58,164 nucleotides of DNA from Myxococcota bacterium (GCA_023150835.1 JAKLKB010000028.1:1-58164); one strand, 5' to 3'. Shown: positions 4,319 to 41,016, counted from the first letter of the stretch. The notes: generated by a model from the sequence alone, not told the origin. Translations and numbers: made by a program.

Positions 4319-6613
4319 ATGATCAAACGGTCTCGGCTCTTTGGGATGTTCATGGTGTGGGTGATCGGGATAGGGGTGATGTGGCCTGTGTATGCGGAAG
4401 AAGGGATGTTTTTGTTGTACGAGACGGCGAAAGTGCCGTGGCAAGAGCTTCAAAAGAACGGGTTGAAGCTTTCGTCGCAACAAGTGCAAGCGCTTGCGCC
4501 AGCGGTGGTGCAGTTGGCGCGGGGTGGGACGGGTTCGTTTGTTTCAAAGGGCGGGCTGATCGTCACAAACCACCACGTCGCGTATGGCTGTTTGGCCCGA
4601 TTGGACGCCACCACGCACAAGGGTTTGATGAAAAAAGGGTACGTGGCGGCATCGCGTGAGAAAGAAGTGCATTGCCCGGGCTACGATATGATGGTGGTGG
4701 TGCGGCTGGAAGATGTGACGGAAAAAGTGCGCAGCGTGCTCAAATTGGGGATGAAGCCAGAGCAACAGGCGAAGCTGATCCGCACGCAACGACGGACGCT
4801 TGAAGCGGCTTGTGAAAAAGGAACAGGGCTGATCTGCGAAGTGTCGGCCTTGAATGGCGGTGCAGGTTTTACGTTGTCGGCGTATCGGCGTTTGTTGGAT
4901 GTGCGTCTTGTGTACGCACCTGCGGGGGCCTTGGGCAAGTTTGGCGGAGATATCGACAACTGGCGTTATCCGCGTCATACCGCAGACTTCACCTTTTTGC
5001 GTGCCTATGTGGGAGCAGACGGGCATCCCGCCAACTACAGCCCCAAGAATCGGCCTTTTGCCCCCGCGCACTATCTCAAGATCAGCACAAAGCCGCTTCA
5101 GCGGGGTGATTTGACGATGGTGATGGGATTCCCGGGCCGCACGTCGCGTCACGCCTCGTATGCACAAGCCAAGTACTATTACGAACGGGCGATCACACAA
5201 CGCGCCCTCTTATTTCGTGCGCTGATCGATGCGATGCCCAAGAAAGGGCTCGGAAAACGCCGCTATCAGGGGCTGAGCGCAGGTCTCAACAACGGGGCCA
5301 AGTATTACGAAGATCTCAAGACGCAATTCGATCATTTCAAGTTGCTTGAGCGGAAGAAACAACAGCAACAAGTATGGCTGTCCAAGTTCAACGGTAGTCA
5401 CAAGATCCGCAAAGAACACGCGCAGTTTTTAGGGCAGATCGAGAAGATCTTTGAAGATTATCGGGATGTGGATCAAAAAGCGTTGTATCTGACGTACATG
5501 CAGTCGTCGATCTTGCGAAGCCTTCAAACAGCGGTGGATCTGGTGAAGTGGAGCAAGATCCGCAGCAAGTCCGATCTCGAACGCCCGGGCGAGCGCTTCC
5601 GCGACAAGAATATGTACCGCGTGTACCGTGAGTCCGATATGTTGGAGCGTTTGATCACCCTCGGCGGCGAGCGCAAGCTGTTGACACGCTATATACAGAT
5701 GGCGTACGCGCTTCCAGCCGCCCAGCGGCCCAAAGTCGTGGAGTGGCTGTATCGCAAAGGCCAAAAACAAGCCAAGCGGCTACGCAAGCGCTTTCGCAAG
5801 ATGAATCCGAGCCTGCAACCCTACGTTGCGAAGCTGTTGCACCTTGGGCTGCAAAAGCTCGATCCGATCGAAGTGGCTGTGGCGTGGCTGTTTCATCACA
5901 CCGCGCTGATCGGCAAAGAAAAGGACGCGCTGTCTTTGAAAGCAGCCGTCGGTTTGCGCCAAGCCCTGTTCAAAGCAGAGGAAAAAGAACTGCGCGCCGC
6001 CAAAGATCCGCTGTTGCAGCTTGCGGTGCGGATCGTGGATGAGGTGGAAGCCCTCGAAAAAGGCCCCTTGGCTCCGATGAACAAAGTGCTCGGGCCGATC
6101 TACAATCCCCTTCTTGTCCAACAGATCATCCAGCCAAGTTATTGGGATGCGAACTTTACGCTGCGCTTTAATTACGGAACGGTGCAAGATTACACAGAGT
6201 CCAAAAGCCAAAAGAAGTACTTCTACATGACGACGCTTCAAGAGCTTTTGAAAAAAGGCACCGACAAACACCCCTTTGTGGTTCCTGCGTCCTTGAAAAA
6301 AGTCGCCGCAGCGAAGCAATGGGGGACGTGGCGCGATCCGTCGATCAAAGATGTGCCTGTGAACTTTACGGCAACGCTCGACACAACGGGCGGGAATTCA
6401 GGCAGTCCCGTGTTGAATGGTGCGGGCGAGCTGATGGGCCTGTTGTTTGATGGAACGCCCGAGTCGATCCTCAGTGATTGGCAATACATCGAGTCCGAAC
6501 AGCGCAGCATCTGTATGGATATCCGCTTTGCTTTGTTTCTTGCCGACAAAGTGGATGGCGCTCACGCGCTACTGAAAGAACTCGGGATCGCCTCTTCCAA
6601 AGATTCTAGATAA
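4319..6613 (+). CDS. S46 family dipeptidyl-peptidase (DPP7/DPP11-like)
   Basis: Signal peptide then EEGMF; GTGSFVS..GLIVTNHHV; GGDIDNWRYPRHTADF; catalytic Ser in TGGNSGSPV..GLLFDG. Confidence 0.95.
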   Translation: MIKRSRLFGMFMVWVIGIGVMWPVYAEEGMFLLYETAKVPWQELQKNGLKLSSQQVQALAPAVVQLARGGTGSFVSKGGLIVTNHHVAYGCLARLDATTHKGLMKKGYVAASREKEVHCPGYDMMVVVRLEDVTEKVRSVLKLGMKPEQQAKLIRTQRRTLEAACEKGTGLICEVSALNGGAGFTLSAYRRLLDVRLVYAPAGALGKFGGDIDNWRYPRHTADFTFLRAYVGADGHPANYSPKNRPFAPAHYLKISTKPLQRGDLTMVMGFPGRTSRHASYAQAKYYYERAITQRALLFRALIDAMPKKGLGKRRYQGLSAGLNNGAKYYEDLKTQFDHFKLLERKKQQQQVWLSKFNGSHKIRKEHAQFLGQIEKIFEDYRDVDQKALYLTYMQSSILRSLQTAVDLVKWSKIRSKSDLERPGERFRDKNMYRVYRESDMLERLITLGGERKLLTRYIQMAYALPAAQRPKVVEWLYRKGQKQAKRLRKRFRKMNPSLQPYVAKLLHLGLQKLDPIEVAVAWLFHHTALIGKEKDALSLKAAVGLRQALFKAEEKELRAAKDPLLQLAVRIVDEVEALEKGPLAPMNKVLGPIYNPLLVQQIIQPSYWDANFTLRFNYGTVQDYTESKSQKKYFYMTTLQELLKKGTDKHPFVVPASLKKVAAAKQWGTWRDPSIKDVPVNFTATLDTTGGNSGSPVLNGAGELMGLLFDGTPESILSDWQYIESEQRSICMDIRFALFLADKVDGAHALLKELGIASSKDSR

Positions 6614-6726
6614 TACGATATCCGAGTGATGTGTGATCGTAAGATAGTACGTAGCCGCCCGATTCTTGGGCAGCCACAGGGGGCTGCCCCTACATTTTTA
6701 CGATCACACAACGAGCGGATCTCGTA
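6614..6726 (-). mobile_element. MITE-like element family A (113 bp, terminal inverted repeats, TA ends)
   Basis: TACGATATCCG...CGGATCTCGTA ends; inner IR TGTGTGATCGTAA/TTACGATCACACA; central REP hairpin; directly after the S46 stop codon. Confidence 0.7.
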
Positions 6727-6742
6727 TAAGGTGGGTTGTGAG

Positions 6743-7231
6743 CTAACGTTGGGCATTGGCGCGAGGTTCGGGGAGGGGTTGAGACTGTGTGCGGGGGCGG
6801 AGAGAGCGGTGACGCGAGCTGTAGGCCCGTTGGGGTTCTTGTGATGCGGGACACGTGGTGGATGCGTCCTCTTCGATGGGGAGGAGCGGAACCAGCGTCG
6901 GCTGCGAGAGCGGATGTTTGGGAGCGGGGGCTTGGGCAATCAACCAAGCGCAGATCTCATCAAAAAGCCCCCAAGGGATGGCCTTTGTAGAAGTGATGCC
7001 GTACGTACACAGCAAATGATTTTTGAGATCATCGAGAGAGAGACGGGCCTGCTTGAGGAGGGGGAAAAGTTGGCCGCGTGCAGGTTCGCTGATGGGGTCT
7101 TCGTCTTCGCAGCCCGCTTGACGGATGATGGAGAGCACCCGACGGATGGCGTCGGCGTGATCTTGTTTGCCTTGGGCGGTGTAGTCACGTTCCATGTGGG
7201 CGAGAAGGTCGGCGATGACGTAAGCTTTCAT
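6743..7231 (-). CDS. Hypothetical protein with a phage-like helical domain
   Basis: GGAG RBS; segment ISEPARGQLF...LKNHLLCTYGITSTKAIPWGLFDEICAWL resembles C-terminal domains I recall from phage recombination proteins. Confidence 0.6.
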   Translation of the reverse strand: MKAYVIADLLAHMERDYTAQGKQDHADAIRRVLSIIRQAGCEDEDPISEPARGQLFPLLKQARLSLDDLKNHLLCTYGITSTKAIPWGLFDEICAWLIAQAPAPKHPLSQPTLVPLLPIEEDASTTCPASQEPQRAYSSRHRSLRPRTQSQPLPEPRANAQR

Positions 7232-7448
7232 GTATCAAATCTCCCAAAAAGACCTCGCCTCTCGATAAAAGGCGCGGATGGCGCGACAAAGCGATGTTGT
7301 GCCGTGCGTTTTTCAGACAGGGGCCAGTATGGAAGGGGTGTGCGTCACACGGCGTCACAAGGTCGCCCCGCCACGCAAGTTCTTTGATCTTTGGGTGGAA
7401 ATCGATCATGCTCGATCGTTTGACACCCCCACAAAAAGAGGAGGCATC

Positions 7449-7835
7449 GTGTCCAACAACAAAGAACGCCAACAGTTCGGTCTTTCGCCGATCGATCGGG
7501 AAGAATGGTGCGCGATGTTGTCGCAGCGGATGGGGCGTTTGTTGCCGAATCCATCAGGAGAACAAGCGAGCGAGGCTTTTTTGCGTGAGGTGGAGGAATG
7601 GCTGACACAGCGATTTGGTGAGATGCTGGCGCATCGTGCCGAGCAAGCCTTTCAGGCGTTGTATCGGGTGGATGTTTCGGAAGAACAAGTCAAACAAGTG
7701 ATGTCGACACAAGCATCGGCGTTATGGGCAAGAGCATTTGCGCGGATGGTGGTGGCGCGGCAGATGGAGAAGTGGGAGACACGACAGCGTTGGCAAGCGC
7801 AATTTGCGCCTTCAAAACAAGGCGATTGTTCTTGA
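7449..7835 (+). CDS. Conserved hypothetical protein
   Basis: GAGGAGG RBS before GTG 7449; motif LYRVDVSE...ARQMEKWETR. Confidence 0.65.
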   Translation: MSNNKERQQFGLSPIDREEWCAMLSQRMGRLLPNPSGEQASEAFLREVEEWLTQRFGEMLAHRAEQAFQALYRVDVSEEQVKQVMSTQASALWARAFARMVVARQMEKWETRQRWQAQFAPSKQGDCS

Positions 7836-11900: not shown

Positions 11901-12519
11901 CGCAGGGCCGGGAGGAGTGCGCGCAGACGCCGAGCATCTGTTGGGAGCGTGGAGTGGGAAAACAGGTCGGATGTTGGCGGGTTTTCCGCGTGTGGTCGAA
12001 GACTTTCAATTTTTTATGAACCCCGTGGTTGCAGAGATATCAGGGGACGACAAATACGACGTGATCTCGGGGACGGGAGGCTATCTCTTGCACGCGGTGG
12101 GATCGGATGGAAAGCCCGTTGCAGGCTATCCCAAACAAACAGGCGGCTGGCTGGCGGCTTCACCGACAAGCGGCGATATGGACGGAGACGGAAAGCGCGA
12201 GCTTGCGGCGCTCACACGCAACGGCTGGTTGTTTGTGTGGCGCACCAAAGGCGATGCAGGGATCAAAGCGCAATGGGAATCCTTTCACCACGATCTCGCC
12301 AACACAGGCAACTTTAGCGTGCCCTTGCCGGGTCGTCGCATTGGAGATGCCCCCGAAAAAGTAGACGAACCCAACCCTTCAGATGGCGGAAACACCGACA
12401 AGACCGGTCCCGCCACAGGATGCGGATGTCAAAGCAGCGGTGAAAGCGGATTCTCGGTCGGTTTGCTGTTGATCTTGTTGTGCTGGTTGGCACGCCGCCG
12501 AGTTGTGGGGGTTGGATGA
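8986..12519 (+). CDS. S8 family serine peptidase with FG-GAP/VCBS repeats and MYXO-CTERM-like anchor
   Basis: Asp in AVTDSG, His in FGHGN, candidate Ser in SCSSEATG; DDDNNGYIDDISGWDF; many GDLDGDGKLE repeats; C-terminal GCGC + hydrophobic stretch + RRR. Confidence 0.88.
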   Translation: MKRKYRWGRVGLGLLGVWALGLLLTAADWPNGPDEDPTLAIPNDPDYARRCRCKAGATCPDEDPDTKENKDKPCFHDRQCGGKSFVCQGRGYWNYWSFVPEEWTKTPGFREEEKQLGTGIHADRAWQLTTGDARVLIAVTDSGVYWDNKDLVNKYYLNTGELPKPQDKDGKEYPTHDANGDGVVNMLDYADDPRVTDKNGNGIKDPGDLIKTFSNGKDDDNNGYIDDISGWDFMQDDNDPNDDTRFGHGNGEASDSAAEGNNGISGVGVCPKCMVMMLRVSDSFVGDTNHFAAASIYAADMGAQVIQDALGVMNNTPYSREAVAYAWRKGTLVIGSSADETSYHHNYPGIYLHTLYVSAIRYDAEKVEQSKTFLNFTNCSNFGGKLVISTPGVSCSSEATGISSGHAGLLYAAGLKFKVTPPLNAAETYQLFIMSADDINVAESKTDKTKYPSGPGWDHYFGYGRNNARRSVEWVRDGAIPPTALITSPRWFQPIYPAKTPSIAIEAEIEARRHERFDYILEVAKGVQPEEGAYRKLKEEKSVTQAIKGKVADWSVKDEDYEKTGATTRDAHKHSYTIRIRVTAYRKDGKTDKGEFRKTVHLLDDPDLVAAFPMYLDAGGAPSLKMADLNNDGKQELIVASESGTIHAFDINGKDIEGWPVQTKLLAFFDPNNPNNHLKAPAYDKEGFRKDYRQSIIATPAIGDLDGDGKLEVVVASYDGEVYVFGHDGKPKAGFPVKLDAEKSKKTDKNNRLEYGIFASPVLFDLDGDGKLEIIVGAMDGHIYVWRHDGSMQPGFPVELSDKSEATPQRGRIMSTPAVGDVDGDGKPEIFVGTNEVYKDEKEARLYGIHHDGNNHAGGPYLAGWPVKIFTLAGDVLPYVGRGNPNSPMLADFDGDGKLEIVNGTMFFSPTIYKADGTQFRQMLPAPFGAGTDSTDTQMIFGLNNPSLGDLDGDGIPDLIGGGVGGNALKAIAGPGGVRADAEHLLGAWSGKTGRMLAGFPRVVEDFQFFMNPVVAEISGDDKYDVISGTGGYLLHAVGSDGKPVAGYPKQTGGWLAASPTSGDMDGDGKRELAALTRNGWLFVWRTKGDAGIKAQWESFHHDLANTGNFSVPLPGRRIGDAPEKVDEPNPSDGGNTDKTGPATGCGCQSSGESGFSVGLLLILLCWLARRRVVGVG

Positions 12520-15380
12520 TCGAACAACTGTCGGCTCCTTTTGTGGTGTTTGCGCTAGAGGAACGAGCGTTGGTGGCGCATCAGGCGATCCAAACCTTCT
12601 CGGCTTACGGTCGTGCGCGAGCGGTAGGAGAAGCCTTTTCTTTGCGTGCCTACTGGTGCGAACAAAAGCGATGGCTATCGCCTTCGTTGTACGATGCTTT
12701 GTGGGAGCGCTTCTCAACGGAAACCTCGGCAGAACAGCAGGAAGAAGTCTTGGACGCGGAGACCCAACGCAGCCGCGATCTCGACTGCTTGGCGACCGTA
12801 CAGCTTTACATACTCCAACACCCGACAGACTCACAAGAAACACCACAACGCATCCAAATCGAGCGCGGAAAAAAGCAAGAAAAGCAACAGAAAGCGATGC
12901 TTCAGATCGCAAAAGAAGCCGACCACCGCGCAAAGGAGAGCGACAGCAGCGCAAAGGAGGAAGTCCCCAAAACACAGGTGCTTTCGGTGTCCGTCACCGA
13001 AGCAAGCGAGGATATCCCCGCCCAAGCGCATCTTGTCGAAGCGCCGCAAGTGCTTTGGCAACCCGCCCGCGTCTACGCCGAACGCTACAAAGAAGAAGAA
13101 GAGTTGGGACGCGGTGGTCTTGGGCGGGTGGTGGCGCTGTACGACCGCAATGTCGGTCGAAAAGTAGCAAGCAAGATGCTGTTGAAAGGCACAGGCGCAT
13201 CGTTTCGAGAGCATCAGCGCTTTTTTGAAGAGGCCCGACTGACGGGGCAATTAGAACATCCCAACATTATCCCGATCTACGATATCGGCGTGTTGGAAGA
13301 TGGGCAGCCCTATTACACCATGCGCCTGAGTTCATCGCGAAATCTTGCGCAAGTGTTAGAGGAACGCAGCGCCTCGATCTTGCAACTGCTCAAGATCCTT
13401 CAACAGATGTGCATGGGCCTTGAGTACGCGCACAGTCGAAATGTGATCCACCGCGATATCAAGCCCGCCAATATCTTGCTTGGTGAGTTTGGCGAGGTCT
13501 TGATCTTGGATTGGGGGATCGCGGAACGCACAGCCCCCGAAGACCAAGCCGACGGATTCAGCACACAAACCCCCAAAGACAAGATCCCTCGCGGAACTCC
13601 CGCTTACATCGCCCCCGAAGTCCTCACCAAGGGCATCATCTCACCTGCTTTGGACCAATACGCCTTGGGGGTGATCTTGTACGAGATATTGACGGGGAAA
13701 CGGCCTTTTGAAGAAGTCAACCTGTTTACGTTGATCTTCAAAGTCAGCTTTGAAGAACCCTATCCACCGAGCCATTGCGATGTGTCTTGGGAAGTCCCCG
13801 AAGAGCTAGAACAGATCTGCTTGCGGATGTTGGCCAAAGATCCCCAAGCGCGTTTCCCGTCTTGCCGCGCTGTCTATGATCAGTTGGAAGAATATCTGGA
13901 AGGCACAAAAGAAAAACAACGGCGAAAAGAAGCCGCCCTTTCTCGGATCGCAGAAGCCGACGCGATCAAAGTAGAGTTCTACGAAAAACGCGCACAGTTG
14001 GGCGCATTGCGAAAAGAATGGGAAGATGCCCAAAAGACCGTCGAACCGTGGGACAGCCCCGAAGCCAAGCGCGAAGCATGGGCCAAAGAAGACAAGTTCC
14101 TCGAATTCGAGCAAGAAGTGGTGCGGCTTTTTGGGGCAGCGGTCCAAAAGTACATCCGCGCACTAGAACACGAACCCGGGAACGCAGACGCCAAAAACGG
14201 CCTTGTCGAGTTGTATTGGGAGCGCTTCTTGGAGGCCGAACGCGAAGGCGACACCTTGCAACAGATCTATTACCGCGATCTGGTGGAGTTTTATGACGAC
14301 GGAACCTACGCAAGATTGCTGCACGGCCAAGGCATCGTTGAGATCGCCACAGACCCCAAAGACGCCACCCTACAGGTCTTTCGCTTTGTGGAGCAAGAGC
14401 GCAGACTCCGACCGCTTTTAGAGATCGAAGAAAAAAAAACACCCAGCACACTCGAACTTTCGCAAGGCTCGTACCTCTTGCGCTTCCATAAGCAGGGGCG
14501 GCGAGACACGCTTTACCCGCTACAGATCCAACGAACCACCCGCGATGCTGTGCATATCCGCTTGTACCGCGAAGAAGAGATCGGTGGGGCATACATACAC
14601 GTCCCTGCGGGGCCATTTCCGTTTGGTGGCGATCCAGAAGCCTTGATGGGGCTGCCTTTTTCGCACCACACACTCGATGACTTTTTTATCTCGCGCTATC
14701 CTGTCACGTTGGGGGAATACCTGATCTATGTAAACACCATCCATGCCGAAGATCCCGCCCGTGCAGCAGATCTGGTTCCGCGATCTGGACAAGAAAACTA
14801 CGCGATATTGGAGGGGGATCACTACATCCCCCATCGTGCGGCCCTATTAGAAGGTGAGATCGCCCAACGCTATCCCGTAGGCGAAGGGCATGAAGAGCGT
14901 CTACCTGTGTTTGGAGTGAGTTGGTTTGAAGCGGTCTTGTACTGTCGCTGGCGCACCCAACGCGAAGGGCGCTTGGTGTCCTTGCCCTCCGAAGAACAAT
15001 GGGAAAAAGCCGCAGGGTGCTTTGATCAGCGGATCTATCCTTGGGGCAATCGTTTTGATGCAACCTTTTGTAAGATGGGGCGCTCTCGCCCTGCCAACCA
15101 GCTACAGCCCGAGCCGATCGGCGTCTTTACGGCGGATCAGTCCGTGTATGGGATGTGTGATGTGGTGGGATGTGTTAGCGAATGGACGCTCTCGATGACG
15201 CCCGAAGAAGTGGCGTTGTTCACCGAAGATCCAAAGATCACCCCCGTTCAACGAGGCGGTGGATGGGTCGCTTCTAACGAGCGAAGTTTGCGCCTTCGCA
15301 CACGACTGCCCCGCGCCGAAGGCACACGGACGTACAATTGCGGCTTTCGCGTTGTTGCTTATCCCAAACAGCCAAGCTAG
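12516..15380 (+). CDS. Ser/Thr protein kinase with PEGA-like region and C-terminal FGE-sulfatase (SUMF1) domain
   Basis: LGRGGLGRV, VASK, HRDIKPAN, DWG, GTPAYIAPE; C-terminal LPSEEQWEKAA..RIYPWG, QRGGGW, GFR; ATG overlaps the S8 stop (ATGA). Confidence 0.9.
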   Translation: MIEQLSAPFVVFALEERALVAHQAIQTFSAYGRARAVGEAFSLRAYWCEQKRWLSPSLYDALWERFSTETSAEQQEEVLDAETQRSRDLDCLATVQLYILQHPTDSQETPQRIQIERGKKQEKQQKAMLQIAKEADHRAKESDSSAKEEVPKTQVLSVSVTEASEDIPAQAHLVEAPQVLWQPARVYAERYKEEEELGRGGLGRVVALYDRNVGRKVASKMLLKGTGASFREHQRFFEEARLTGQLEHPNIIPIYDIGVLEDGQPYYTMRLSSSRNLAQVLEERSASILQLLKILQQMCMGLEYAHSRNVIHRDIKPANILLGEFGEVLILDWGIAERTAPEDQADGFSTQTPKDKIPRGTPAYIAPEVLTKGIISPALDQYALGVILYEILTGKRPFEEVNLFTLIFKVSFEEPYPPSHCDVSWEVPEELEQICLRMLAKDPQARFPSCRAVYDQLEEYLEGTKEKQRRKEAALSRIAEADAIKVEFYEKRAQLGALRKEWEDAQKTVEPWDSPEAKREAWAKEDKFLEFEQEVVRLFGAAVQKYIRALEHEPGNADAKNGLVELYWERFLEAEREGDTLQQIYYRDLVEFYDDGTYARLLHGQGIVEIATDPKDATLQVFRFVEQERRLRPLLEIEEKKTPSTLELSQGSYLLRFHKQGRRDTLYPLQIQRTTRDAVHIRLYREEEIGGAYIHVPAGPFPFGGDPEALMGLPFSHHTLDDFFISRYPVTLGEYLIYVNTIHAEDPARAADLVPRSGQENYAILEGDHYIPHRAALLEGEIAQRYPVGEGHEERLPVFGVSWFEAVLYCRWRTQREGRLVSLPSEEQWEKAAGCFDQRIYPWGNRFDATFCKMGRSRPANQLQPEPIGVFTADQSVYGMCDVVGCVSEWTLSMTPEEVALFTEDPKITPVQRGGGWVASNERSLRLRTRLPRAEGTRTYNCGFRVVAYPKQPS

Positions 15381-15606
15381 AGTGTATTCTTTACCATACA
15401 CTCAGACGATACCGAAGGAGAGAGCCGTGACACGCTTGGCAGAGTGGCGCGGTACAACAACGCAGCAATGACACATAGAAAAGTCATCGCCGAGGATCGA
15501 GCGTTGCGAGACCGCGAGAAAATAGTCTCGTTTGGCTTTTTGGCATAGATATTGTTTTCGGTCGAGATGAAGCATCATGTCTTTAGCAAAGAAAGCAGGT
15601 GATCAG

Positions 15607-17691
15607 ATGCCAAGGCAAGAACGGAAGATCGGTGTGTTGTTTGTGGGATGGGCGTTGGCTTGGCTCGGGCTGTGGGGCTGTAGTTCATCGCCCGGAAACA
15701 CAAAACCAGTGGGCCAATTGCCTCCTGATACGGTGGTGTTCAAGACCGAAACAGCACTGTGTCCCGATCGGTTGCTGTCGAGTTCGCCCGTCCAATTCGA
15801 CGGAGAGGCATGTGATATCAACAAAAGCGAGCCTTGCAACAGCGGCTGCCGTCCTGCGGTGACCTTGGCCTCAAGCAAGATCGAAGGGGACGTGGATGCG
15901 TTGTGTGGGCAATCGGGTGTGTTGTGCGTTGGAAAAGGCCGAGGTCTCGAAGAGATCAAAGAACTGCCCAAACGTTTGCAAGACGACGCAACGATCGTGC
16001 GGGTGATCTTGATGGGGGAGGTCTGGCAAGGGCCGATCGAGTTGGGCGGATTGACGCGCACGATCACGATCGAAGGAGTCTCGAACGAAGCCAACGCAGG
16101 TGCGCGCATCCAACTGCCCGAACAAGCCGATGCCCCCGAAGATTACGCAGCCCTCCAGATCGAAAGTAACGCAGATATCACCTTGAAGCGCCTGCATATC
16201 AGCGGAGGTGGGCATGGCGTGTTGATCCGCGCCGCCCGCATCGCCACGCTCGAAGAGGTGATCCTTAAGGGAAATCGGCTGTCTGGCTTGCACGTCGAAT
16301 CTGCCGAGGAAGTCAAGATCCTCCAAACACAAGCCACACAAAATGGCAAGCCGTTGTTGCGCGAGGGTTCGACAGAACCCGTCTCACGGCTGCGTTTTGG
16401 CGTGATGTTGGGCAAAGTCAAAGTCGTCTCGGTCGCCAACACGGAGATCGCCCACAACGGAGCAGGGGGACTGGCGCGGGCGTGGGAAACCAAAGCGGTG
16501 GGGATCACGCATGATCACCGTGTGACGGGGCGTTATGAAAAATATGGTGTCGGCATCACCCACGATCACAAGGTCGCCATGCGCTCGACCTACGTCCACC
16601 ACAATGGCCCGATCGCAGCCGATACACGGCGCAGTCAAGAAGATTGCTCCACGCGTTGTCCAAGAGGTACCTTTTGCGAGGCTGGGATCTGCCGTCCTTC
16701 CTTGGTGGAAGATGGGCAAGAACCCACCCAAGGACAGCGTTTGTTGGGGGTCGGCGTCCATATCGCAGGCGCAGGCATCGTGGAGATCGAAGGCAACAGC
16801 TTTTTTGGCAACGATACCGCTGGTGTGATCGTGCATTCAAGCGCAACGGTCAGCTTGTCGCGAAACGCATTCGAGCGAAACGGCGTTCGTTCGGCCCAAA
16901 TCAACGCTGAGATCGCGGAGCGGTTTGCTTATCCAGCCGCGCACCTCTGGCACGTCCAAAAAGATATCCGCGCAGAAAGCAACGTATTTACCGACAACTA
17001 CGGCGACGGCTTGCGTGTCGGCCATGAGCGCGTCGAAGGCCAAAACGTGGGCAACCTCAAGACCAACCTGTTCTCGAACGCCTTTTGGGGCCAAGGCCGC
17101 AGCCGTCCCAAAGGCGAGTTTCCCGCAGGAACAGGACTCCGTATCGCCCATGCAACCGACGGGGTGGACGCCGAAGTTCGCGTAGAAAAGAACTACTTTC
17201 ATGGCAACGGAGCCGCAGGGCTGGGCGTTTCAGGCAAAGGCTCGTTCAACGTCGCAGAAAATAAGTTTGAAAAAGAGCGATTGCGCGCCATTGCTTTCCA
17301 CGATGTCAAGAGCGCCAACACCGCGATCACCCGCAACAACCTCTCGGATATCCGAGGCTTTGGGATCCAGCTCGTCGATATCTCAGGCGAGTTCAGGCTG
17401 TCCGAGCTGTGGATCAACAAGATCACCCGCATCAGCGAAGAAAGCGAAGGCGACGGCATCAACATCAGCCGCCTTTCGGAAGGCCGCGTCTCGATCCAAA
17501 CCACAAGCTTCCAAGAGGCCGGACGGGCAGGCATTTTCTTGGATGCTGCTCGTGCGGAGCTTTCTGGCAACAGCTTCACCGCGATTGAAAAGCCCATCCT
17601 CCTTCAAGGCGACGCTTCTGTCACAGGCGAAGCAACCAAAGGCGATCGAGTTCGTTCCCCCCTTCCCAACCGCAAGATCGCCCTCCCCTAA
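15607..17691 (+). CDS. Right-handed parallel beta-helix repeat lipoprotein
   Basis: Lipobox LWGC; repeated N-x-x-x-G-l-x-v coils (GNRLSGLHV, HNGAGGL, GNDTAGVIV, DNYGDGLRV); start may be 15577. Confidence 0.8.
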   Translation: MPRQERKIGVLFVGWALAWLGLWGCSSSPGNTKPVGQLPPDTVVFKTETALCPDRLLSSSPVQFDGEACDINKSEPCNSGCRPAVTLASSKIEGDVDALCGQSGVLCVGKGRGLEEIKELPKRLQDDATIVRVILMGEVWQGPIELGGLTRTITIEGVSNEANAGARIQLPEQADAPEDYAALQIESNADITLKRLHISGGGHGVLIRAARIATLEEVILKGNRLSGLHVESAEEVKILQTQATQNGKPLLREGSTEPVSRLRFGVMLGKVKVVSVANTEIAHNGAGGLARAWETKAVGITHDHRVTGRYEKYGVGITHDHKVAMRSTYVHHNGPIAADTRRSQEDCSTRCPRGTFCEAGICRPSLVEDGQEPTQGQRLLGVGVHIAGAGIVEIEGNSFFGNDTAGVIVHSSATVSLSRNAFERNGVRSAQINAEIAERFAYPAAHLWHVQKDIRAESNVFTDNYGDGLRVGHERVEGQNVGNLKTNLFSNAFWGQGRSRPKGEFPAGTGLRIAHATDGVDAEVRVEKNYFHGNGAAGLGVSGKGSFNVAENKFEKERLRAIAFHDVKSANTAITRNNLSDIRGFGIQLVDISGEFRLSELWINKITRISEESEGDGINISRLSEGRVSIQTTSFQEAGRAGIFLDAARAELSGNSFTAIEKPILLQGDASVTGEATKGDRVRSPLPNRKIALP

Positions 17692-17741
17692 ACGGCCTTC
17701 CCTACGCTACGCCTTCCCCCAAAGACGCAACTCTCCCAGAA

Positions 17742-17854
17742 TACGAGAGCCGCCCGTTGTATGCTCGTAAAAATGTAGGGGCAGACAGGTGTGGCTGCCC
17801 AAGCACAGGGCGTCTACGCGCTATCCTGCGATCACACATCACTCGGATATTGTA
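17742..17854 (+). mobile_element. MITE-like element family A (113 bp)
   Basis: TACGAGAGCCG...CGGATATTGTA with internal GTAGGGGCAG..GTGGCTGCCC; lies between convergent genes. Confidence 0.65.
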
Positions 17855-17872
17855 TAAGACGCAACACCTCTC

Positions 17873-18739
17873 TCAAAACGAAGAAGCAGAGGCCGCATCC
17901 CCTGCAAGATAAAAGCACGTGATGGTGTAACGTGCGATCCCCTCGGGGATAGCGCGCACAGGCTCCACCCAATGAGGTGCGCCCTGAGGACGAAAGATCA
18001 AAGCGCTGTTGAAGACAGGCGGGATCGCCAAAGCGATCCGTTGCTTGTCAGGATGCAAGAAATACAGGTTCCCCCCCCATTCAGGCGACCAATGCGCCGA
18101 AAGATTGTACACCACAGCGATGCCTTCGCATTCGGTGTCTTCGTGCATCGCGAAAAAATCCCCCTCCCGCAAACGTGATATCTGGACTTGAATGGCCGAG
18201 TGCATTGGACGAGGATGAGGCCATCCCACCAGCCATTGATGCGCTGCTGCCGCCTCTTTGGTGCGCAACCAATTCACCAGCCCCGCCAAGATGCCCGACG
18301 GCGCAAGCGCGTCCATCGGAAGGATATCGATCTGGTAATCCGAAAAATGATGCCGAACAAAAGACGCTGTAGACAGTTCTTTCCAGATCGCCCACGCCTG
18401 TTCGGCAGGGAAAGCCTCTTGCAAAGCAACGTGCGGGATCGGCCCTTCAAAAAGAAAATGTTGGCGGATCGTCGTCACGATCGCGGGATCGAGAATCTGA
18501 GGATGCCACCACTGCGACACATTCGAGGGGTCGGGCGAAGAGTCATGTACGATCGTTCGCCAGTTCGAGCCAAAGCGGTGATCTACAAGATGAGGAATAA
18601 AAAAGGCCCCTCGTTCGGACGCTTTGGGAAGGCTCTCCCACGCAGGCCAAGCGTGCTCCAAAAACAAAGAACGGCTGTGCTGTTGGTATCGCTCGATCGG
18701 GGGTTGGCATCCTTCGTTCGGGGATTCTGGTCGACTCAC
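17873..18739 (-). CDS. 2OG-Fe(II) oxygenase (prolyl-hydroxylase-like), putative RiPP tailoring enzyme
   Basis: HxD (MHED), WxxEWGGxL, distal His (APHWV), 2OG-binding Arg (ARYTI); GGAG before GTG 18739; 29 nt after the ATP-grasp stop. Confidence 0.85.
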   Translation of the reverse strand: MSRPESPNEGCQPPIERYQQHSRSLFLEHAWPAWESLPKASERGAFFIPHLVDHRFGSNWRTIVHDSSPDPSNVSQWWHPQILDPAIVTTIRQHFLFEGPIPHVALQEAFPAEQAWAIWKELSTASFVRHHFSDYQIDILPMDALAPSGILAGLVNWLRTKEAAAAHQWLVGWPHPRPMHSAIQVQISRLREGDFFAMHEDTECEGIAVVYNLSAHWSPEWGGNLYFLHPDKQRIALAIPPVFNSALIFRPQGAPHWVEPVRAIPEGIARYTITCFYLAGDAASASSF

Positions 18740-18768
18740 GCTGGCCCTCCATTCGCTTGTTGATTTGC

Positions 18769-19710
18769 TCAGATAGCCGCTTGTTCGACCAAGAACGCCG
18801 CCAAACGCTTGATCAAGACCCCTTCCACGGGATCGTCGAAGTACGATATCGCAGGCGTTGGATTGCACTCAAACACCACAAAACGCCCATCTGCTTGGCG
18901 TCGCATATCGACCGCCGTCCAAGACAGCCCAAGCACCGACGCAGCGCGCACACACAACGCCCATGCTTCTTCTGAGATCACCGTAGGTCGGGCTTGATCG
19001 ACCGCCTCACGTGCATCCACCAACCCCTCCGTTGGCAACGAAAAGGCCGCCACAGGCTCGCCGTTCAACACATACGCTCGGAACTCTTCGCCTAGAATCT
19101 CCTCCTGAAACAGCACAGGGCAATGCGCCAATAACCCCAACCGTTCGGGCTGGAGATCGGCGCTCGACAAACGTCGCACCATCGCACCTCCCCCAAGCGG
19201 CTTGTAGATCACACGTGGATGTCGCTCAACAAACGCCAATAACGCCGAATGATCGGACGTTGCAAGGCTTTCAGGAACAGGGATGCCCTGCGCTTTCAAG
19301 CGCGCAAGCTGATGCAGCTTGAGTTCATGCAAACGCACCGAAGCCATCGGATTGATCATCCGCGTCCCTTGCTCTTCCAAGATCTCCAACACCGACGCAA
19401 TCAACGATTGACGTTCCCGCTCTGCGATGTACATCTCCTGCCAGATATCAAAGTTGCGCCGCGAAAATTGCTCGGGGTCGGTCGAAGGCACACCCGTGTG
19501 GATCGTCCGCAGATACACACAACGCAACGCATCCAAACGCTCCCCCTCATAAAGCAACGCTCCTCGATCGTACGTCAACGTTCGCGCTTCTGGAACAGCC
19601 GCCGTTTCCAACAGCCAAGGCAAACCACCCGCCCGCTCCACCGCCTTCATCACATACATCGCTTGCTCGTCTTGTCGGGATGCAACAATTCCGACACACT
19701 TCTTCTCCAC
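18769..19710 (-). CDS. ATP-grasp ligase, RimK-like / graspetide synthetase (MvdC/D, PsnB)-like
   Basis: INP...KLHQL..GIPVPESLATSD; IYKPLGGGA; PVLFQEEI; VDAR at the DxR position; AVDMRR..DGRFVVFECNP; N-terminal S..DE.A.YV like peptide-maturase ATP-grasps. Confidence 0.85.
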   Translation of the reverse strand: MEKKCVGIVASRQDEQAMYVMKAVERAGGLPWLLETAAVPEARTLTYDRGALLYEGERLDALRCVYLRTIHTGVPSTDPEQFSRRNFDIWQEMYIAERERQSLIASVLEILEEQGTRMINPMASVRLHELKLHQLARLKAQGIPVPESLATSDHSALLAFVERHPRVIYKPLGGGAMVRRLSSADLQPERLGLLAHCPVLFQEEILGEEFRAYVLNGEPVAAFSLPTEGLVDAREAVDQARPTVISEEAWALCVRAASVLGLSWTAVDMRRQADGRFVVFECNPTPAISYFDDPVEGVLIKRLAAFLVEQAAI

Positions 19711-19784
19711 GATCTGGGTTCCTCACAGTGCTTGTTTTGTTGATAGGACCTACGCATTTGGATGGTTTGGTGTTTATTGATTCA

Positions 19785-19911
19785 GTTTTGTGGGGCGAGG
19801 TACCACACCCCGCAAGGGTGCACAGCCCCTTTGACCCCGTTTTGGCGAAGAGATCACAGATTTTTCAACACAACGGCTCTGTCGCTTGAGAGAGCGCGAT
19901 CACGGAGTTGG
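19785..19911 (+). repeat. Dispersed intergenic repeat family B, copy 2
   Basis: TTTTGTGGGG..CCCCGCAAGGG..CCCCTTTGACCCCGT..TTTTTCAAC..CGCTTGA..CACGG; sits between the precursor and ATP-grasp genes. Confidence 0.8.
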
Positions 19912-19957
19912 AGACAGTGTAGCTTGCAAGACAGCGGAACAACCAGAAAGAAGGGGC

Positions 19958-20782
19958 TTAGCGGAAGAGATCGCGGAGTAGGTTCGCAAGATCGGAGAGT
20001 TGGCTTCCAAGCGAGCCGGGAAGAGGCTCATCCGCACGAAACTTCATAATCGGTCCGCCATTTTGGGGAAACCCGATGTCGGGAAGGCTGGGGAATCCGC
20101 CGCCTTGGTTCGGCATCGGCTCATCCGCACGAAACTTCATGATCGGTCCGTTGCCACCGGGAAACGGGAACGTCGGGACTTGGGGCAAGCCCTCTTGACC
20201 GGGCATCGGCTCATCCGCACGAAACTTCATGATCGGTCCGTTGCCACCGGGAAATGGGAACGTCGGAGGTTTCGGTGAAGAGCCATCTTGACCGGGCAAC
20301 GGAACGTCTGCACGAAACTTCATGATCGGCCCGTTGCCACCGGGAAATGGAAACGTCGGAGTTTGAGTTGGAGGTGTGGGTTGTCCGCCGTCTTGGCCGG
20401 GTAGTGGGACATCTGCGCGCACTTTCATGATCGGCCCGTTTCCGCCCGGCAGTTGAGGATGTCCGCCGTCTTGGCCGGGCAGTGGGATATCTGCGCGCAC
20501 TTTCATGATCGGCCCATTGCCGCTCGGCAAATGGGGTTGCCCTCCCTCTTGGCCGGGTAATGGGACATCCGCACGAATCTTCATGATCGGCGGTTTGCCT
20601 TGCTGTTGGGATTGAACGAAGTTTTTGACCGCGTCAGCAGCCCCTTGAAAGCCTTTTGCAGCGCGTTCAAAAGCATCCGCAACTCGGCCCCCTCCGTCTT
20701 TCACACCTTGGTTTTGTTGCGTAGAAGAGGTTTTTTCGGTGGATTGGACGGGAGGTAGGTTCGGCTTTTGATTGATCTTCAT
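19958..20782 (-). CDS. Repeat-containing putative RiPP (graspetide) precursor, 274 aa, seven PIMKxRADxP(L/M)P cores
   Basis: AAGGAG RBS; about 60-aa non-repetitive N-terminus; cores at residues 65, 91, 117, 152, 183, 213, 244 separated by Gly/Pro linkers; synonymous variation between repeats supports coding; upstream of the ATP-grasp gene. Confidence 0.8.
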   Translation of the reverse strand: MKINQKPNLPPVQSTEKTSSTQQNQGVKDGGGRVADAFERAAKGFQGAADAVKNFVQSQQQGKPPIMKIRADVPLPGQEGGQPHLPSGNGPIMKVRADIPLPGQDGGHPQLPGGNGPIMKVRADVPLPGQDGGQPTPPTQTPTFPFPGGNGPIMKFRADVPLPGQDGSSPKPPTFPFPGGNGPIMKFRADEPMPGQEGLPQVPTFPFPGGNGPIMKFRADEPMPNQGGGFPSLPDIGFPQNGGPIMKFRADEPLPGSLGSQLSDLANLLRDLFR

Positions 20783-20808
20783 CTTGTGCTCCTTAGCGAT
20801 AACGCTAT

Positions 20809-20838
20809 GCATCGTATGGAGATATCTCCATGCGATGC
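20809..20838. promoter_or_regulatory. 30-bp near-perfect dyad upstream of the precursor gene (possible operator or hairpin)
   Basis: GCATCGTATGGAGAT|ATCTCCATGCGATGC, one mismatch. Confidence 0.45.
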
Positions 20839-20868
20839 TTGGTTTTGTTGAACGGGCATCAACCAAAG

Positions 20869-20895
20869 GTATCGTCAAGAGCGAGGCAAAGTTGC
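20869..20895 (-). promoter_or_regulatory. Possible sigma28 (FliA)-like promoter of the precursor gene
   Basis: GCAACTTT-N11-GACGATAC versus E. coli consensus TAAAGTTT-N11-GCCGATAA (5/8 and 6/8 matches). Confidence 0.3.
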
Positions 20896-20908
20896 GTGCG
20901 AGTGCGGC

Positions 20909-23047
20909 TCAGACCTTCTCAAAGAACCGTTCGCTCGCTGCAGCCATCTTTTTCAAGATCGCGGGGGCAGCGTAGCGCGTACCGTAGCGCTCGGCGAATG
21001 CCGTCAGCGTTGCAACAGCGTTGTTTAGCCCGATGCGATCGAGGTAAGAGAACGGCCCTCCTGTGTTCGGTGCAAACCCCACACCGAAGATCGCCCCAAG
21101 ATCGGCATCGCGATGATTGCGCAAAACGCCCGACTCAAGGGCCTTGAGCGCTTCCACGCACTGAATCAACAACAAGCGCTGTTGCACCAAGGTCTCGCTG
21201 CTTTCAGCAGGCATTTGTGCAACCAGCGACTTCAAGCCATCCCAAAAGCCCTTGCGCCGGCCATCTTCGTAGTTGTAAAAGCCCGCCCCTGCGGCTTTTC
21301 CGTTGCGTTTGTGGATATCCACAAGCTGCTTGAGAAGCTCCACTCCCGCAAGCTTCAGTTCGGTTCCAAGGTACTTTTCGCCTTGCTCGATGCCGTGTCG
21401 TCCGAGGCTCAGGCTGACTTCATCAAAGACTTGCAGCGGTCCCACGACCATTCCTGCGCTACGGGCCGCCCATTCGATCAAGGCGGGAGGATGGCCTTCG
21501 GCGAGCAACTGCACACCTTCGAGCGCGTACGCGGAGAACACGCGGGTGGTATAAAAGCCGTAGCCATCGTTGACAACGATCGGAAGTTTTTTGATGGCTT
21601 TACAGTAGTGAAGGCAGCGCGCCAAGGTATCTTGGGAGGTTTCGGCTCCCATGATGATCTCCAACAGGGGCATCTTTTCAACGGGAGAGAAGAAGTGCAT
21701 CCCGATAAATCGGTCTTTTTGTTTGGAGACGATCGCGAGATCGTTCATCGGCAACGCAGAAGTATTGGAGGCCCAGATGCCGTTTGCAGCGAGCAATCCT
21801 TCGAGTTCTTGGTTGACTTGGTGCTTGATCTCAAGCTTTTCAAAGACGGCCTCGATGATCAAGTCGCATCCTTCGAGATCTGCGGACGCAAGCGTCGGTT
21901 TGATGCGTGACGCAAGCTGCTTTTTCCCCGCTTCATCGAGTTCTCGGCGCTTGCTGACTTCCCCAAGACAATGCTCCATCCCGCGATCCAAGGCTTCTTG
22001 ACGGATATCTTTGAGGACGACTTCGTAGCCGCGCAACGCGCTCGTAAACGCCAGTCCTGCGCCCATCATCCCCGCCCCCAAGATGCCGATCTTGCGGATG
22101 CCGCCCTCTTCGACCGAGGGCAGACCGTCGTGCTTTTCAGCAGCAGTGCGATGATACCAGATGGTGCGCAGCATGTCCTTGGCCTGATCGCTTGTGACCA
22201 TCCCCGCGAAGTAGCGCGATTCAACCACCAAACCTGCATCAAAAGTCAACTGCGTCCCTTCTTGGACCGCAGAGAGCGCAGCTTCGGGGCCTTTGAAAGC
22301 CCCTGCTGTCTTCTTAAATAGCATCGCGCTGGCCGCCATCAAGAGATTGCGCGCATCCCCTGTAGCGGGCTGAGGCCCGGGAAACGCAAACCCCTCTCGA
22401 TCCCAAGGCTGTTTGGCCCTCGGATGTGCGGCGATCCATGCTTCGGCCTTGGTGCGAGCAGCTTGGGCATCGACAGCGAGATCGTCGATCAGTCCGGCAT
22501 CTTTGGCTTGTGCTGGCCGATACAGCTTTCCTTGCAAGATCGCTTCGAGCGCTGCTTGCAATCCGATCAAGCGCGGCAAACGCTGCGTCCCGCCCATCCC
22601 GGGCAACAGCCCCAACGACACTTCGGGCAAGCCGATCTGGATCTTGGGATCATCGACAGCGATCCGTGCATGGGCCGCCAATGCAAACTCGTACCCCCCG
22701 CCCAACGCCGACCCCGCCAACAAACAAACCACAGGGTATTTCAGCGTCTCCAAGCGCCGCAGCAAGCCGTGTAGCTGCATCACCCCCTCACGAGCCGCCG
22801 CTGCATCGCGCTGTTTGTACATCACGTCGATGTCACCACCCACACAAAAGTTTTTGTGCGCGCTGTCCAGAATCAGACCCTTCAAGCCCGTCAGCGACGA
22901 AAGCCAATCCAGCCCCATCGCAAGGCCCACACCAAACGCCTCGTTGATCTTGTTCGCTCCATCGGGCATCGCAAAGGTCAACGTCGCGATGCCTGTGTTT
23001 GGATCGAAATGCTGCAAAAATGCCGGATTCTTCTGTATCTGTGTCAT
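20909..23047 (-). CDS. fadB: Fatty acid oxidation multifunctional enzyme (enoyl-CoA hydratase / 3-hydroxyacyl-CoA dehydrogenase)
   Basis: ALGGGYE, IGLPEVSLGLLPGMGGTQRLPRL, GILGAGMMGAG, IIEAVFE, ASNTSAL, GMHFFSPV. Confidence 0.92.
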   Translation of the reverse strand: MTQIQKNPAFLQHFDPNTGIATLTFAMPDGANKINEAFGVGLAMGLDWLSSLTGLKGLILDSAHKNFCVGGDIDVMYKQRDAAAAREGVMQLHGLLRRLETLKYPVVCLLAGSALGGGYEFALAAHARIAVDDPKIQIGLPEVSLGLLPGMGGTQRLPRLIGLQAALEAILQGKLYRPAQAKDAGLIDDLAVDAQAARTKAEAWIAAHPRAKQPWDREGFAFPGPQPATGDARNLLMAASAMLFKKTAGAFKGPEAALSAVQEGTQLTFDAGLVVESRYFAGMVTSDQAKDMLRTIWYHRTAAEKHDGLPSVEEGGIRKIGILGAGMMGAGLAFTSALRGYEVVLKDIRQEALDRGMEHCLGEVSKRRELDEAGKKQLASRIKPTLASADLEGCDLIIEAVFEKLEIKHQVNQELEGLLAANGIWASNTSALPMNDLAIVSKQKDRFIGMHFFSPVEKMPLLEIIMGAETSQDTLARCLHYCKAIKKLPIVVNDGYGFYTTRVFSAYALEGVQLLAEGHPPALIEWAARSAGMVVGPLQVFDEVSLSLGRHGIEQGEKYLGTELKLAGVELLKQLVDIHKRNGKAAGAGFYNYEDGRRKGFWDGLKSLVAQMPAESSETLVQQRLLLIQCVEALKALESGVLRNHRDADLGAIFGVGFAPNTGGPFSYLDRIGLNNAVATLTAFAERYGTRYAAPAILKKMAAASERFFEKV

Positions 23048-40772: not shown

Positions 40773-40903
40773 CACACGCCCCCGCTCCAACGACCTTTTC
40801 AACGCCTGATTTATCGACATGAGTGGTGAAAAGACCTCGACCGATAACACACGCCACCGCTCCAGCGACCTTTTCAATGCCCCCCACACGAAAGGTCCAC
40901 TAA

Positions 40904-41016
40904 TACGAGATCCGCCCGTTGACTTATCGTAAAAAGGTAGGGGCAGCCCCCTGTGGCTGCCCAACAATCGGGCGTCTACGTAATCTCCTTCGATCACCGA
41001 TCACGCGGATATCGTA
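40904..41016 (+). mobile_element. MITE-like element family A (113 bp)
   Basis: TACGAGATCCG...CGGATATCGTA with central GTAGGGGCAGCCCCCTGTGGCTGCCC. Confidence 0.7.

Follow-up and report, generated by a model that had tools for sequence, protein, structure and literature searches.

A putative corallotide-type cassette of three genes, with a seven-core precursor and no CorD, in a Myxococcota bacterium

Examining a 58,164-nucleotide stretch of DNA from a Myxococcota bacterium (GCA_023150835.1 JAKLKB010000028.1:1-58164, the whole of which we call the window), we found that its minus strand carries three co-oriented adjoining genes encoding a repeat-protein precursor, an ATP-grasp ligase and a 2-oxoglutarate- and Fe(II)-dependent (2OG-Fe(II)) oxygenase. 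Sequence comparison indicates that this trio is homologous to CorA, CorB and CorC of the corallotide system, making it a divergent member of the corallotide kind that lacks CorD rather than a new class. Three-gene anatomy, corallotide homology, conservation of catalytic residues and strict linkage of the three genes are established here. On the basis of homology to CorA, CorB and CorC, which represent one characterised system, and of conserved residues, we think it likely that the genes form a corallotide-type graspetide system, in which seven Lys(i)-Asp(i+4) isopeptides would be formed and then hydroxylated. The initial annotation of this DNA had described three co-oriented minus-strand genes, which the open reading frames (ORFs) bear out, as a candidate new multi-core graspetide system. 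The multi-core graspetide assignment is supported by the ligase profile, the conserved residues and the linkage to repeat proteins, but the claim of novelty falls, because a homologous corallotide cluster has already been characterised (PMC13097080).

That cluster, cor of Corallococcus exercitus, was assigned to graspetide group 15 by Carter, Ramesh, Saad, Mubarik and Mitchell (ACS Chem Biol, March 2026; PMC13097080), and what is said of it here follows the portions of that paper available to us. CorA is the precursor with five KxxxD repeats, CorB a graspetide synthetase labelled TIGR04187, CorC a PF13640 oxygenase and CorD a PF00144 beta-lactamase. CorB forms a Lys-Asp isopeptide within KIVAD, and K-to-A and D-to-A variants abolish the modification. 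CorC, which requires 2OG and Fe(II) and takes only the cyclised peptide as substrate, then hydroxylates the Lys delta-carbon, 5-hydroxylysine having been identified by nuclear magnetic resonance (NMR); it also co-purifies with CorB and activates it. The helical N-terminal domain, CorA1-86, binds CorB, CorC and CorD. CorD is dispensable, and all group-15 clusters are said to encode a CorD of beta-lactamase fold. The cluster architecture is said to be restricted to Corallococcus, with oxygenase homologues occurring only within it. The published tryptic fragment NPDDGVIVKIVADDPLR is present in the upstream ORFs of two C. exercitus loci gathered here, L013 and L018, which therefore stand in for the characterised cluster. 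Full-text literature searches found no description of the cassette besides this paper.

The CorA-like precursor gene (19958-20782, minus strand), delimited by its ORF and translation, starts with ATG at 20782, with AAGGAG 7 nucleotides (nt) upstream, and encodes 274 amino acids (aa; 28.7 kDa, pI 9.2), including 47 Pro and 42 Gly. It matched nothing in Pfam or NCBIfam. The initially reported Gly/Pro-rich protein with a region of about 60 aa ahead of seven PIMKxRADxP(L/M)P motifs is thus confirmed, the 64 residues before the first motif (residues 1-64; 20591-20782) forming a putative leader or enzyme-binding region. The core array (20018-20590) follows, and a 19-residue C-terminal tail, GSLGSQLSDLANLLRDLFR (19961-20017), comes after the last core. 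A motif scan of the translation found exactly seven PIMK.RAD.P.P motifs, all with Pro at +6, lying on the minus strand at residues 65-76 (20555-20590), 91-102 (20477-20512), 117-128 (20399-20434), 152-163 (20294-20329), 183-194 (20201-20236), 213-224 (20111-20146) and 244-255 (20018-20053). The predicted Lys-Asp pairs are K68-D72, K94-D98, K120-D124, K155-D159, K186-D190, K216-D220 and K247-D251. Neither a PFFARFL nor an LFIEDL box occurs in the precursor, in agreement with the initial reading.

These repeats exceed what chance or recent duplication would give. The seven copies differ synonymously (AAG/AAA, CGT/CGC, GCG/GCA, GAT/GAC and a number of Pro and Leu codons) without altering the peptide, and the linkers that separate them vary. 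Tandem Repeats Finder reports two arrays in the precursor DNA, with periods of 93 and 78 and matches of 90% and 81%. Only 1 ORF in the whole 7.56-Mb genome has at least two such motifs. A fragment of the precursor is found at 95% identity in a genome of the same genus. A word-based protein search returned one match for the precursor (P0218, 183 aa, 60% identity) and 4 for the oxygenase, low numbers that arise because such a search needs shared words and that do not indicate rarity. The precursor contains no G-x-x triplet runs of at least 4, and a prolyl-hydroxylase/collagen-like system was rejected as an overall explanation for want of G-x-y repeats; it survives as a rival for the site on which the oxygenase acts.

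Two side observations concern the precursor gene. An RNA-library contig of run X17 drops exactly 90 nt at 20111-20202, equal to one repeat unit fewer, which reflects either strains that differ in repeat number or a collapsed assembly. At 20809-20838, 27 nt upstream of the start codon, lies a 30-nt near-perfect palindrome (13 pairs, 4-nt loop) that could be an operator or an RNA hairpin.

The ligase gene (18769-19710, minus strand) encodes 313 aa and was recognised as a CorB-like ATP-grasp graspetide synthetase from its ORF and its Pfam and NCBIfam ATP-grasp matches, as the initial annotation had it. A family profile, made from an alignment of 15 members, was searched against all solved structures and matched PsnB (7DRM) over its full length at E 1e-63 and 218 bits; the window ligase alone, as a single protein, reached E 5e-42. 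Full-length matches followed to 9BOU (E 2e-21) and to 5IG9 and 5IG8 (E about 1e-18), which we take to be MdnC and MdnB. RimK, LysX and GshB were matched over only part of the ligase, at residues 104-293 (E about 6e-10), 105-284 (E 1e-6) and 106-228 (E 6e-5), respectively. The identity of 7DRM with PsnB is taken from their co-occurrence in the PsnB preprint, whose available portions describe Arg213 as escorting the ring-forming acid to ATP and a D(F/W)R loop as essential. Ligase R211 aligns with this arginine and D232-A233-R234 with the loop; R211, D232 and R234 are each invariant in 15/15 aligned ligases, and the middle loop residue is Ala in 13 of the 15, compared with Phe or Trp in D(F/W)R.

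The ligase could alternatively be a RimK/LysX-type amino-acid ligase acting on a repeat-protein or small-molecule carboxylate, its neighbours being coincidental. What speaks for this is that the Pfam matches are weak, sub-threshold ones to R2K_3, GSH-S_ATP and RimK, and that the rimK_fam model gives 60 bits; this lies well under the cut-off of 143.4 bits for RimK-family membership, however, and the LysX model gives 41.6 bits against a cut-off of 275.6 (the MvdC and MvdD models give 30-35 bits). The structures of RimK, LysX and GshB match the C-terminal half only, in contrast to the full-length PsnB match, the three-gene linkage holds at 20/20 loci, and the characterised orthologue is a macrocyclase (PMC13097080, as far as its available text goes), so we regard this alternative as extremely improbable. 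Sequence evidence thus supports placing the ligase in the graspetide-macrocyclase lineage and not with RimK, LysX or GshB, and the ligase tree described below likewise puts it among the oxygenase-linked ligases. It is 52% identical to the C. exercitus ligases. BLASTP against Corallococcus ligases gives 327-338 bits, equal to an alignment score of 93-97 in the style of the Enzyme Function Initiative, a value at which the window ligase would be linked to the Corallococcus nodes under the network cut-off of 70 used in the paper.

The gene for the CorC-like 2OG-Fe(II) oxygenase (17873-18739, minus strand; PF13640 and PF13661) was delimited by start-codon analysis. Its longest ORF, 17873-18868, would run 100 nt into the ligase. 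GTG at 18739, with GGAGG upstream, is the likely start; from there the gene begins 30 nt past the ligase and encodes 288 aa, the same length as its homologue P0065, called elsewhere. The protein matches PF13640 at E 3.4e-12 and has the HxD...H...R pattern, bearing out the HxD..H oxygenase initially named. Counting from this start, H199, D201, H256 and R270 are invariant in 18/18 aligned oxygenases; the facial triad and the 2OG-binding Arg being thus preserved, catalysis appears to be retained. Against its C. exercitus orthologue, the oxygenase scores a phmmer E of 1e-44.

As a side observation on both enzymes, the 450-aa metagenome protein P0084 joins the C-terminal two-thirds of a CorB-like ligase to a CorC-like oxygenase in one frame, its ligase part being 44% identical to window ligase residues 110-311 and its oxygenase part occupying its own residues 255-449. 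It is either a natural fusion or an artefact of gene calling or sequencing.

A scan of one genome per species yielded 32 loci encoding a ligase relative. In 20 of them (L003-L022), which are all those with a ligase identity of 40-94%, the ligase is immediately followed downstream by an oxygenase homologue, as it is in 0/12 of the distant ligase loci. The 20 linked loci come from Corallococcus, Archangium, Myxococcaceae and uncultured Myxococcota records, with one record labelled Proteobacteria, and these loci do not fit the published restriction of the architecture to Corallococcus. Ligase homologues also stand beside repeat proteins, in favour of the initial annotation's reading: an ORF with K-x3-D-x-P repeats lies directly upstream in 19/20 of these loci, with cores such as VIVKIVADDPLR, VVKIKADEPT, LVKVMADQPS and PIMKIRADDPVK. 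L003, the one locus without such an ORF, offers just 170 bases of upstream DNA (it lies on the same contig as G001:C320), and G001, its genome, carries part of a precursor on a different contig. When the flanking ORFs were clustered all against all, precursor, ligase and oxygenase alone proved common to all clades; neither a protease nor an exporter gene was found in the conserved cassette among these clustered ORFs.

All precursors keep the K-x3-D-x-P core while their linkers are not conserved. We collected 77 distinct repeats from 15 precursors with the regular expression KxxxDxP and considered the positions outside it, counted from Lys. Position -2 is Ile in 57/77, +1 is I/V/F in 76/77, +3 is A/S/M in 77/77 and +5 is D/E in 62/77.

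Some relatives differ in their precursors. Those of a sister clade are nearly leaderless (L017:5568-5993, L019:5371-5985, L021:5643-5936 and L022:5515-5982), with the first K-x3-D core from about residue 10-12 of MRI(R/P)..., in contrast to CorA with its 86-aa enzyme-binding N-domain. A GGAGG-like site lies 5-8 nt ahead of the ATG in 4/4 of them, and L017 has an in-frame stop directly before its ATG. Such precursors suggest that the ligases read the repeated core itself, in which case the family may border on both ribosomally synthesised and post-translationally modified peptides and ordinary protein post-translational modification. The distant ligase relatives L024, L027, L025, L028, L030 and L033 accompany other multi-core precursors, with no oxygenase: records of Paenibacillus, Obscuribacterales and Dehalococcoidia have cores of TT(M/L)A(I/V)GEEG or TKxxGEEG type, with many repeats in L028, and L033, a Myxococcota metagenome-assembled genome, has repeats of T(R/M)A.PE.G.D type.

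A ligase tree of 34 rows (the window, the 32 loci and one outgroup from the window's own genome) gathers all 21 oxygenase-linked ligases into one starred clade (100/99). Within it, the window and L003 sit on their own long branch (length 0.76), apart from a Corallococcus and Archangium clade (98/96) and from a five-member clade (100/99) with near-leaderless precursors. The oxygenase tree (18 rows) recovers the groups of the ligase tree, suggesting that the two enzymes share one conserved job. It places the window's genus weakly (80/83) beside the leaderless clade, which also has a PIMKxRAD-type core.

In the proposed mechanism, the ligase would bind the ribosomally made 274-aa precursor and, with ATP, phosphorylate the Asp side chain of each K-x-R-A-D core, with R211 in the role that Arg213 plays in PsnB, guiding the acid that forms the ring. 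Attack by the epsilon-amine of the core Lys, which precedes the Asp by four residues, would then give an intramolecular Lys-Asp isopeptide (macrolactam). Each core closed in this way would lose 18 Da, and up to seven could form. The neighbouring oxygenase would next hydroxylate the cyclised Lys, most likely at the delta-carbon (+16 Da; net -2 Da per core), and by analogy to CorC it may also bind and activate the ligase. Of the cross-links that the initial annotation allowed, homology thus predicts the Lys-to-Asp macrolactam within K-x-R-A-D, and a Ser/Thr ester is not expected.

Since the cluster has no protease, exporter or CorD gene, the product may stay a full-length modified protein. We offer tentatively, as a possibility we doubt more than we favour, that it is not a processed peptide for export but a Pro/Gly-rich protein of about 29 kDa with seven hydroxylated Lys-Asp staples, serving as a bacterial, collagen-like structural or matrix material of a sludge-dwelling relative of the Myxococcota; the thought derives from a conserved cassette of precursor, ligase and oxygenase only, and from the near-leaderless precursors of the sister clade. 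The lack of a protease or exporter gene, and a precursor that is large and Gly/Pro-rich, would also suit Lys and Asp being joined between repeats or between molecules, yielding a covalently networked collagen-like material instead of seven local staples, and modified CorA does aggregate and shows a collagen-like circular dichroism (CD) minimum (PMC13097080, available portions). However, the same portions report that corallotide dehydration was localised by high-resolution tandem mass spectrometry (HRMS/MS) to single KIVAD fragments, and that nuclear Overhauser effect spectroscopy (NOESY) ties Lys9 to Asp13 in one fragment. The i to i+4 spacing, moreover, holds in 77/77 repeats, an argument that is partly circular because the regular expression selects that spacing. 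Networked links are therefore very unlikely in our judgement, and local staples within each core are the preferred reading.

Several observations weigh against a corallotide-type system. The window oxygenase is just 35-44% identical to its Myxococcota homologues (38% in the case of the C. exercitus orthologue), leaving room for a different regiochemistry, and its sole matches by sequence among solved structures are weak ones (E 4e-4) to prolyl hydroxylases acting on hypoxia-inducible factor. The family PF13640 also holds prolyl 4-hydroxylases. With 47 Pro in the 274-residue precursor and the +6 Pro in every core, the same Lys-Asp lactam might thus be accompanied by an oxygenase that acts elsewhere, on the +6 Pro, the linker prolines or the Asp beta-carbon, or that is mainly a non-catalytic activator; the graspetide-linked SmaO hydroxylates Asp (PMC13097080, available portions). 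We hold this to be unlikely, given that the triad and 2OG-binding Arg are invariant, that both trees share their clades, that the conserved feature is the K-x3-D-x-P core and not the linkers, and that NMR put the corallotide site at Lys C-delta. Hydroxylation of the cyclised Lys remains our preferred reading.

A further adverse point comes from G002, a genome of the same genus that is 64% complete. Its syntenic site (L038, G002:C18:416000-430000, about 5611-7792) has thiolase, FadB, an IS605 OrfB/TnpB gene and then an intact oxygenase, 64-67% identical, and neither precursor nor ligase was found anywhere in this 64%-complete genome with the query used. The site has the look of a decayed cluster from which the oxygenase alone was left, and it suggests that the oxygenase may have, or tolerate, an independent life. 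The best NCBIfam match of the ligase, TIGR04187 ('ATP-grasp ribosomal peptide maturase'), is full length and scores 74.5 bits against a cut-off of 350; a low score is normal for this ligase clade, because the orthologous C. exercitus ligases score 91-92 bits and likewise fall below 350. The precursor has an excess of Pro over CorA, its cores and linkers being much richer in Pro and Gly, and its 64-aa N-terminal region aligns poorly with the helical CorA domain of about 86 aa; alignment with the N-regions of 10 other precursors is patchy and weak.

Finally, a CorD query from L013 (PF00144, E 2e-68) found nothing in the window; against the window's own genome it gave weak beta-lactamase-fold matches on other contigs (E 6.5e-20 and 5.8e-12). 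CorD lies downstream in 6/7 Corallococcus loci and in 0/13 of the other Myxococcota-type loci. The sole Corallococcus locus of the seven that lacks it, in Corallococcus sicarius (L011:7661-8581), has the oxygenase followed by an ORF on the opposite strand that resembles a LysR-type regulator by eye.

Searched against 1.84 billion cluster representatives, the oxygenase profile retrieves 27 at E <= 1e-30, beyond which matches fall off sharply. At E <= 1e-25 it is found in 39/401 sampled species genomes from the phylum of the C. exercitus genome. The window belongs to a phylum grouping separate from the one that contains Corallococcus; only 6 genomes represent it, and the oxygenase occurs in 3 of them, all of the window's genus. 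Near-identical DNA is present in 20/24 listed public runs; these belong to 8 metagenome studies, on activated sludge, wastewater, bioreactors and aquatic sites, and the source sample itself may account for 3 of the rows. RNA-library contigs from 3 studies cover the precursor gene, which does not amount to proof of transcription, as carried-over DNA could explain it. Those from one sample (X15 = X16) cover the ligase and oxygenase too; in runs X17 and X19 they cover the precursor and not the ligase or oxygenase, gaps that say nothing on relative expression.

The cluster lies between FadB-like and thiolase genes upstream and a convergent beta-helix protein gene downstream, none of them shared with the related loci. 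The 247-nt spacer between precursor and ligase owes its length to a copy of a dispersed genomic repeat at 19790-19905, with about 90-120 matches by blastn-short against its own genome. An attenuator hairpin in this spacer was considered and dropped, the spacer folding no better than shuffled sequences (z -0.15). A scan of 17400-21300 for promoters and terminators gave no more sites than shuffled sequences, and base composition around the cluster is nothing island-like (G+C content 0.56-0.58, compared with 0.53-0.60 across the window). A second, unrelated family of dispersed repeats, with 442 blastn-short matches in the genome, has copies at 17741-17830, 6665-6727 and 40903-40980; the first separates the oxygenase stop codon from the beta-helix gene, and RNA-library contigs accumulate and break there. 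That adjoining gene (15577-17691) encodes a 704-aa right-handed beta-helix/NosD-like protein with an N-terminus that is lipoprotein-like by eye. Next to it, 12480-15380 encodes a 966-aa protein in which a Ser/Thr kinase domain is combined with one of FGE-sulfatase (formylglycine-generating-enzyme-like) type.

Corallotide chemistry, a Lys-Asp isopeptide followed by delta-hydroxylation, has been reported once, in 2026 and from one genus (PMC13097080, available portions). The loci described here indicate a wider family that takes in Archangium, Myxococcus records, uncultured Myxococcota and a sparsely sampled sister grouping, the oxygenase occurring in roughly a tenth of the Myxococcota species genomes sampled. 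They also point to CorD as an addition peculiar to Corallococcus and to three genes as the smallest unit. As a test case for what the ligase and oxygenase recognise, and for whether the partner-dependence of the ligase is general, the window is compact, free of CorD and divergent, with seven cores of identical spacing, a different core sequence and a short N-region.

Among known systems, plesiocin (PsnA2/PsnB, a group 2 graspetide) resembles the window system in its multi-core precursor, in PsnB (7DRM) being the closest solved structure by sequence, and in the acid-recognising Arg and D-x-R loop that the window ligase keeps. It differs in its TTxxxxEE cores, which bear two Thr-Glu esters each according to the PsnB preprint, whereas one Lys-Asp amide per core is expected in the window; in its D-F/W-R loop, which is D-A-R in the window; and in that PsnB has no oxygenase partner. 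The leader contacts of PsnB are conserved only within group 2a, by the available portions of the PsnB preprint. The microviridin enzymes MdnC/MdnB (MvdD/MvdC) also belong to this superfamily as ATP-grasp macrocyclases, and those of MdnB/MvdC type form a lactam between Lys and an acid. These ligases are far more distant, however, at E about 1e-18 with the window-family profile, and the microviridin system, which has no oxygenase, uses two ligases on a single tricyclic core with a PFFARFL leader. Myxomiditide, compared by description from the available portions of PMC12848669, is likewise made by a myxobacterial ATP-grasp ligase, MyxF, acting on repeated Lys/acid motifs, (KxxE)n, but it has KxxE spacing, belongs to a microviridin subclass with cooperating ligases, and a term for a 2OG oxygenase has 0 occurrences in that text. 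Iyer et al. 2010 (PMC2938197) placed myxobacterial JmjC-type dioxygenases beside ATP-grasp genes, and a cassette of the window type is not described in the portions available.

Collagen provides a likeness outside the graspetides, since the predicted window product would have 5-hydroxylysine-type residues on a Gly/Pro-rich repeat protein. Lysyl 5-hydroxylation is a modification of collagen. The window precursor has no Gly-X-Y runs, in contrast to collagen; the comparison itself is drawn in PMC13097080, by whose available text corallotide hydroxylation, as a further difference, comes after isopeptide formation. From corallotide itself, the window system departs in having seven PIMKxRADxP(L/M)P cores where CorA has five of VIVKIVADDPLR type, in its 19-aa C-terminal tail where Corallococcus precursors end at or just after the last repeat, in a ligase and oxygenase on long separate branches, and in a precursor-ligase gap of 247 nt where Corallococcus has about 40. 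With corallotide it nevertheless shares the gene order of precursor, ligase and oxygenase; ligases of one starred clade, both with TIGR04187 as their best, sub-threshold NCBIfam match; a homologous oxygenase in which H, D, H and R are likewise invariant; and a large precursor in which an acidic or variable residue and then Pro come after a repeated K-x3-D core.

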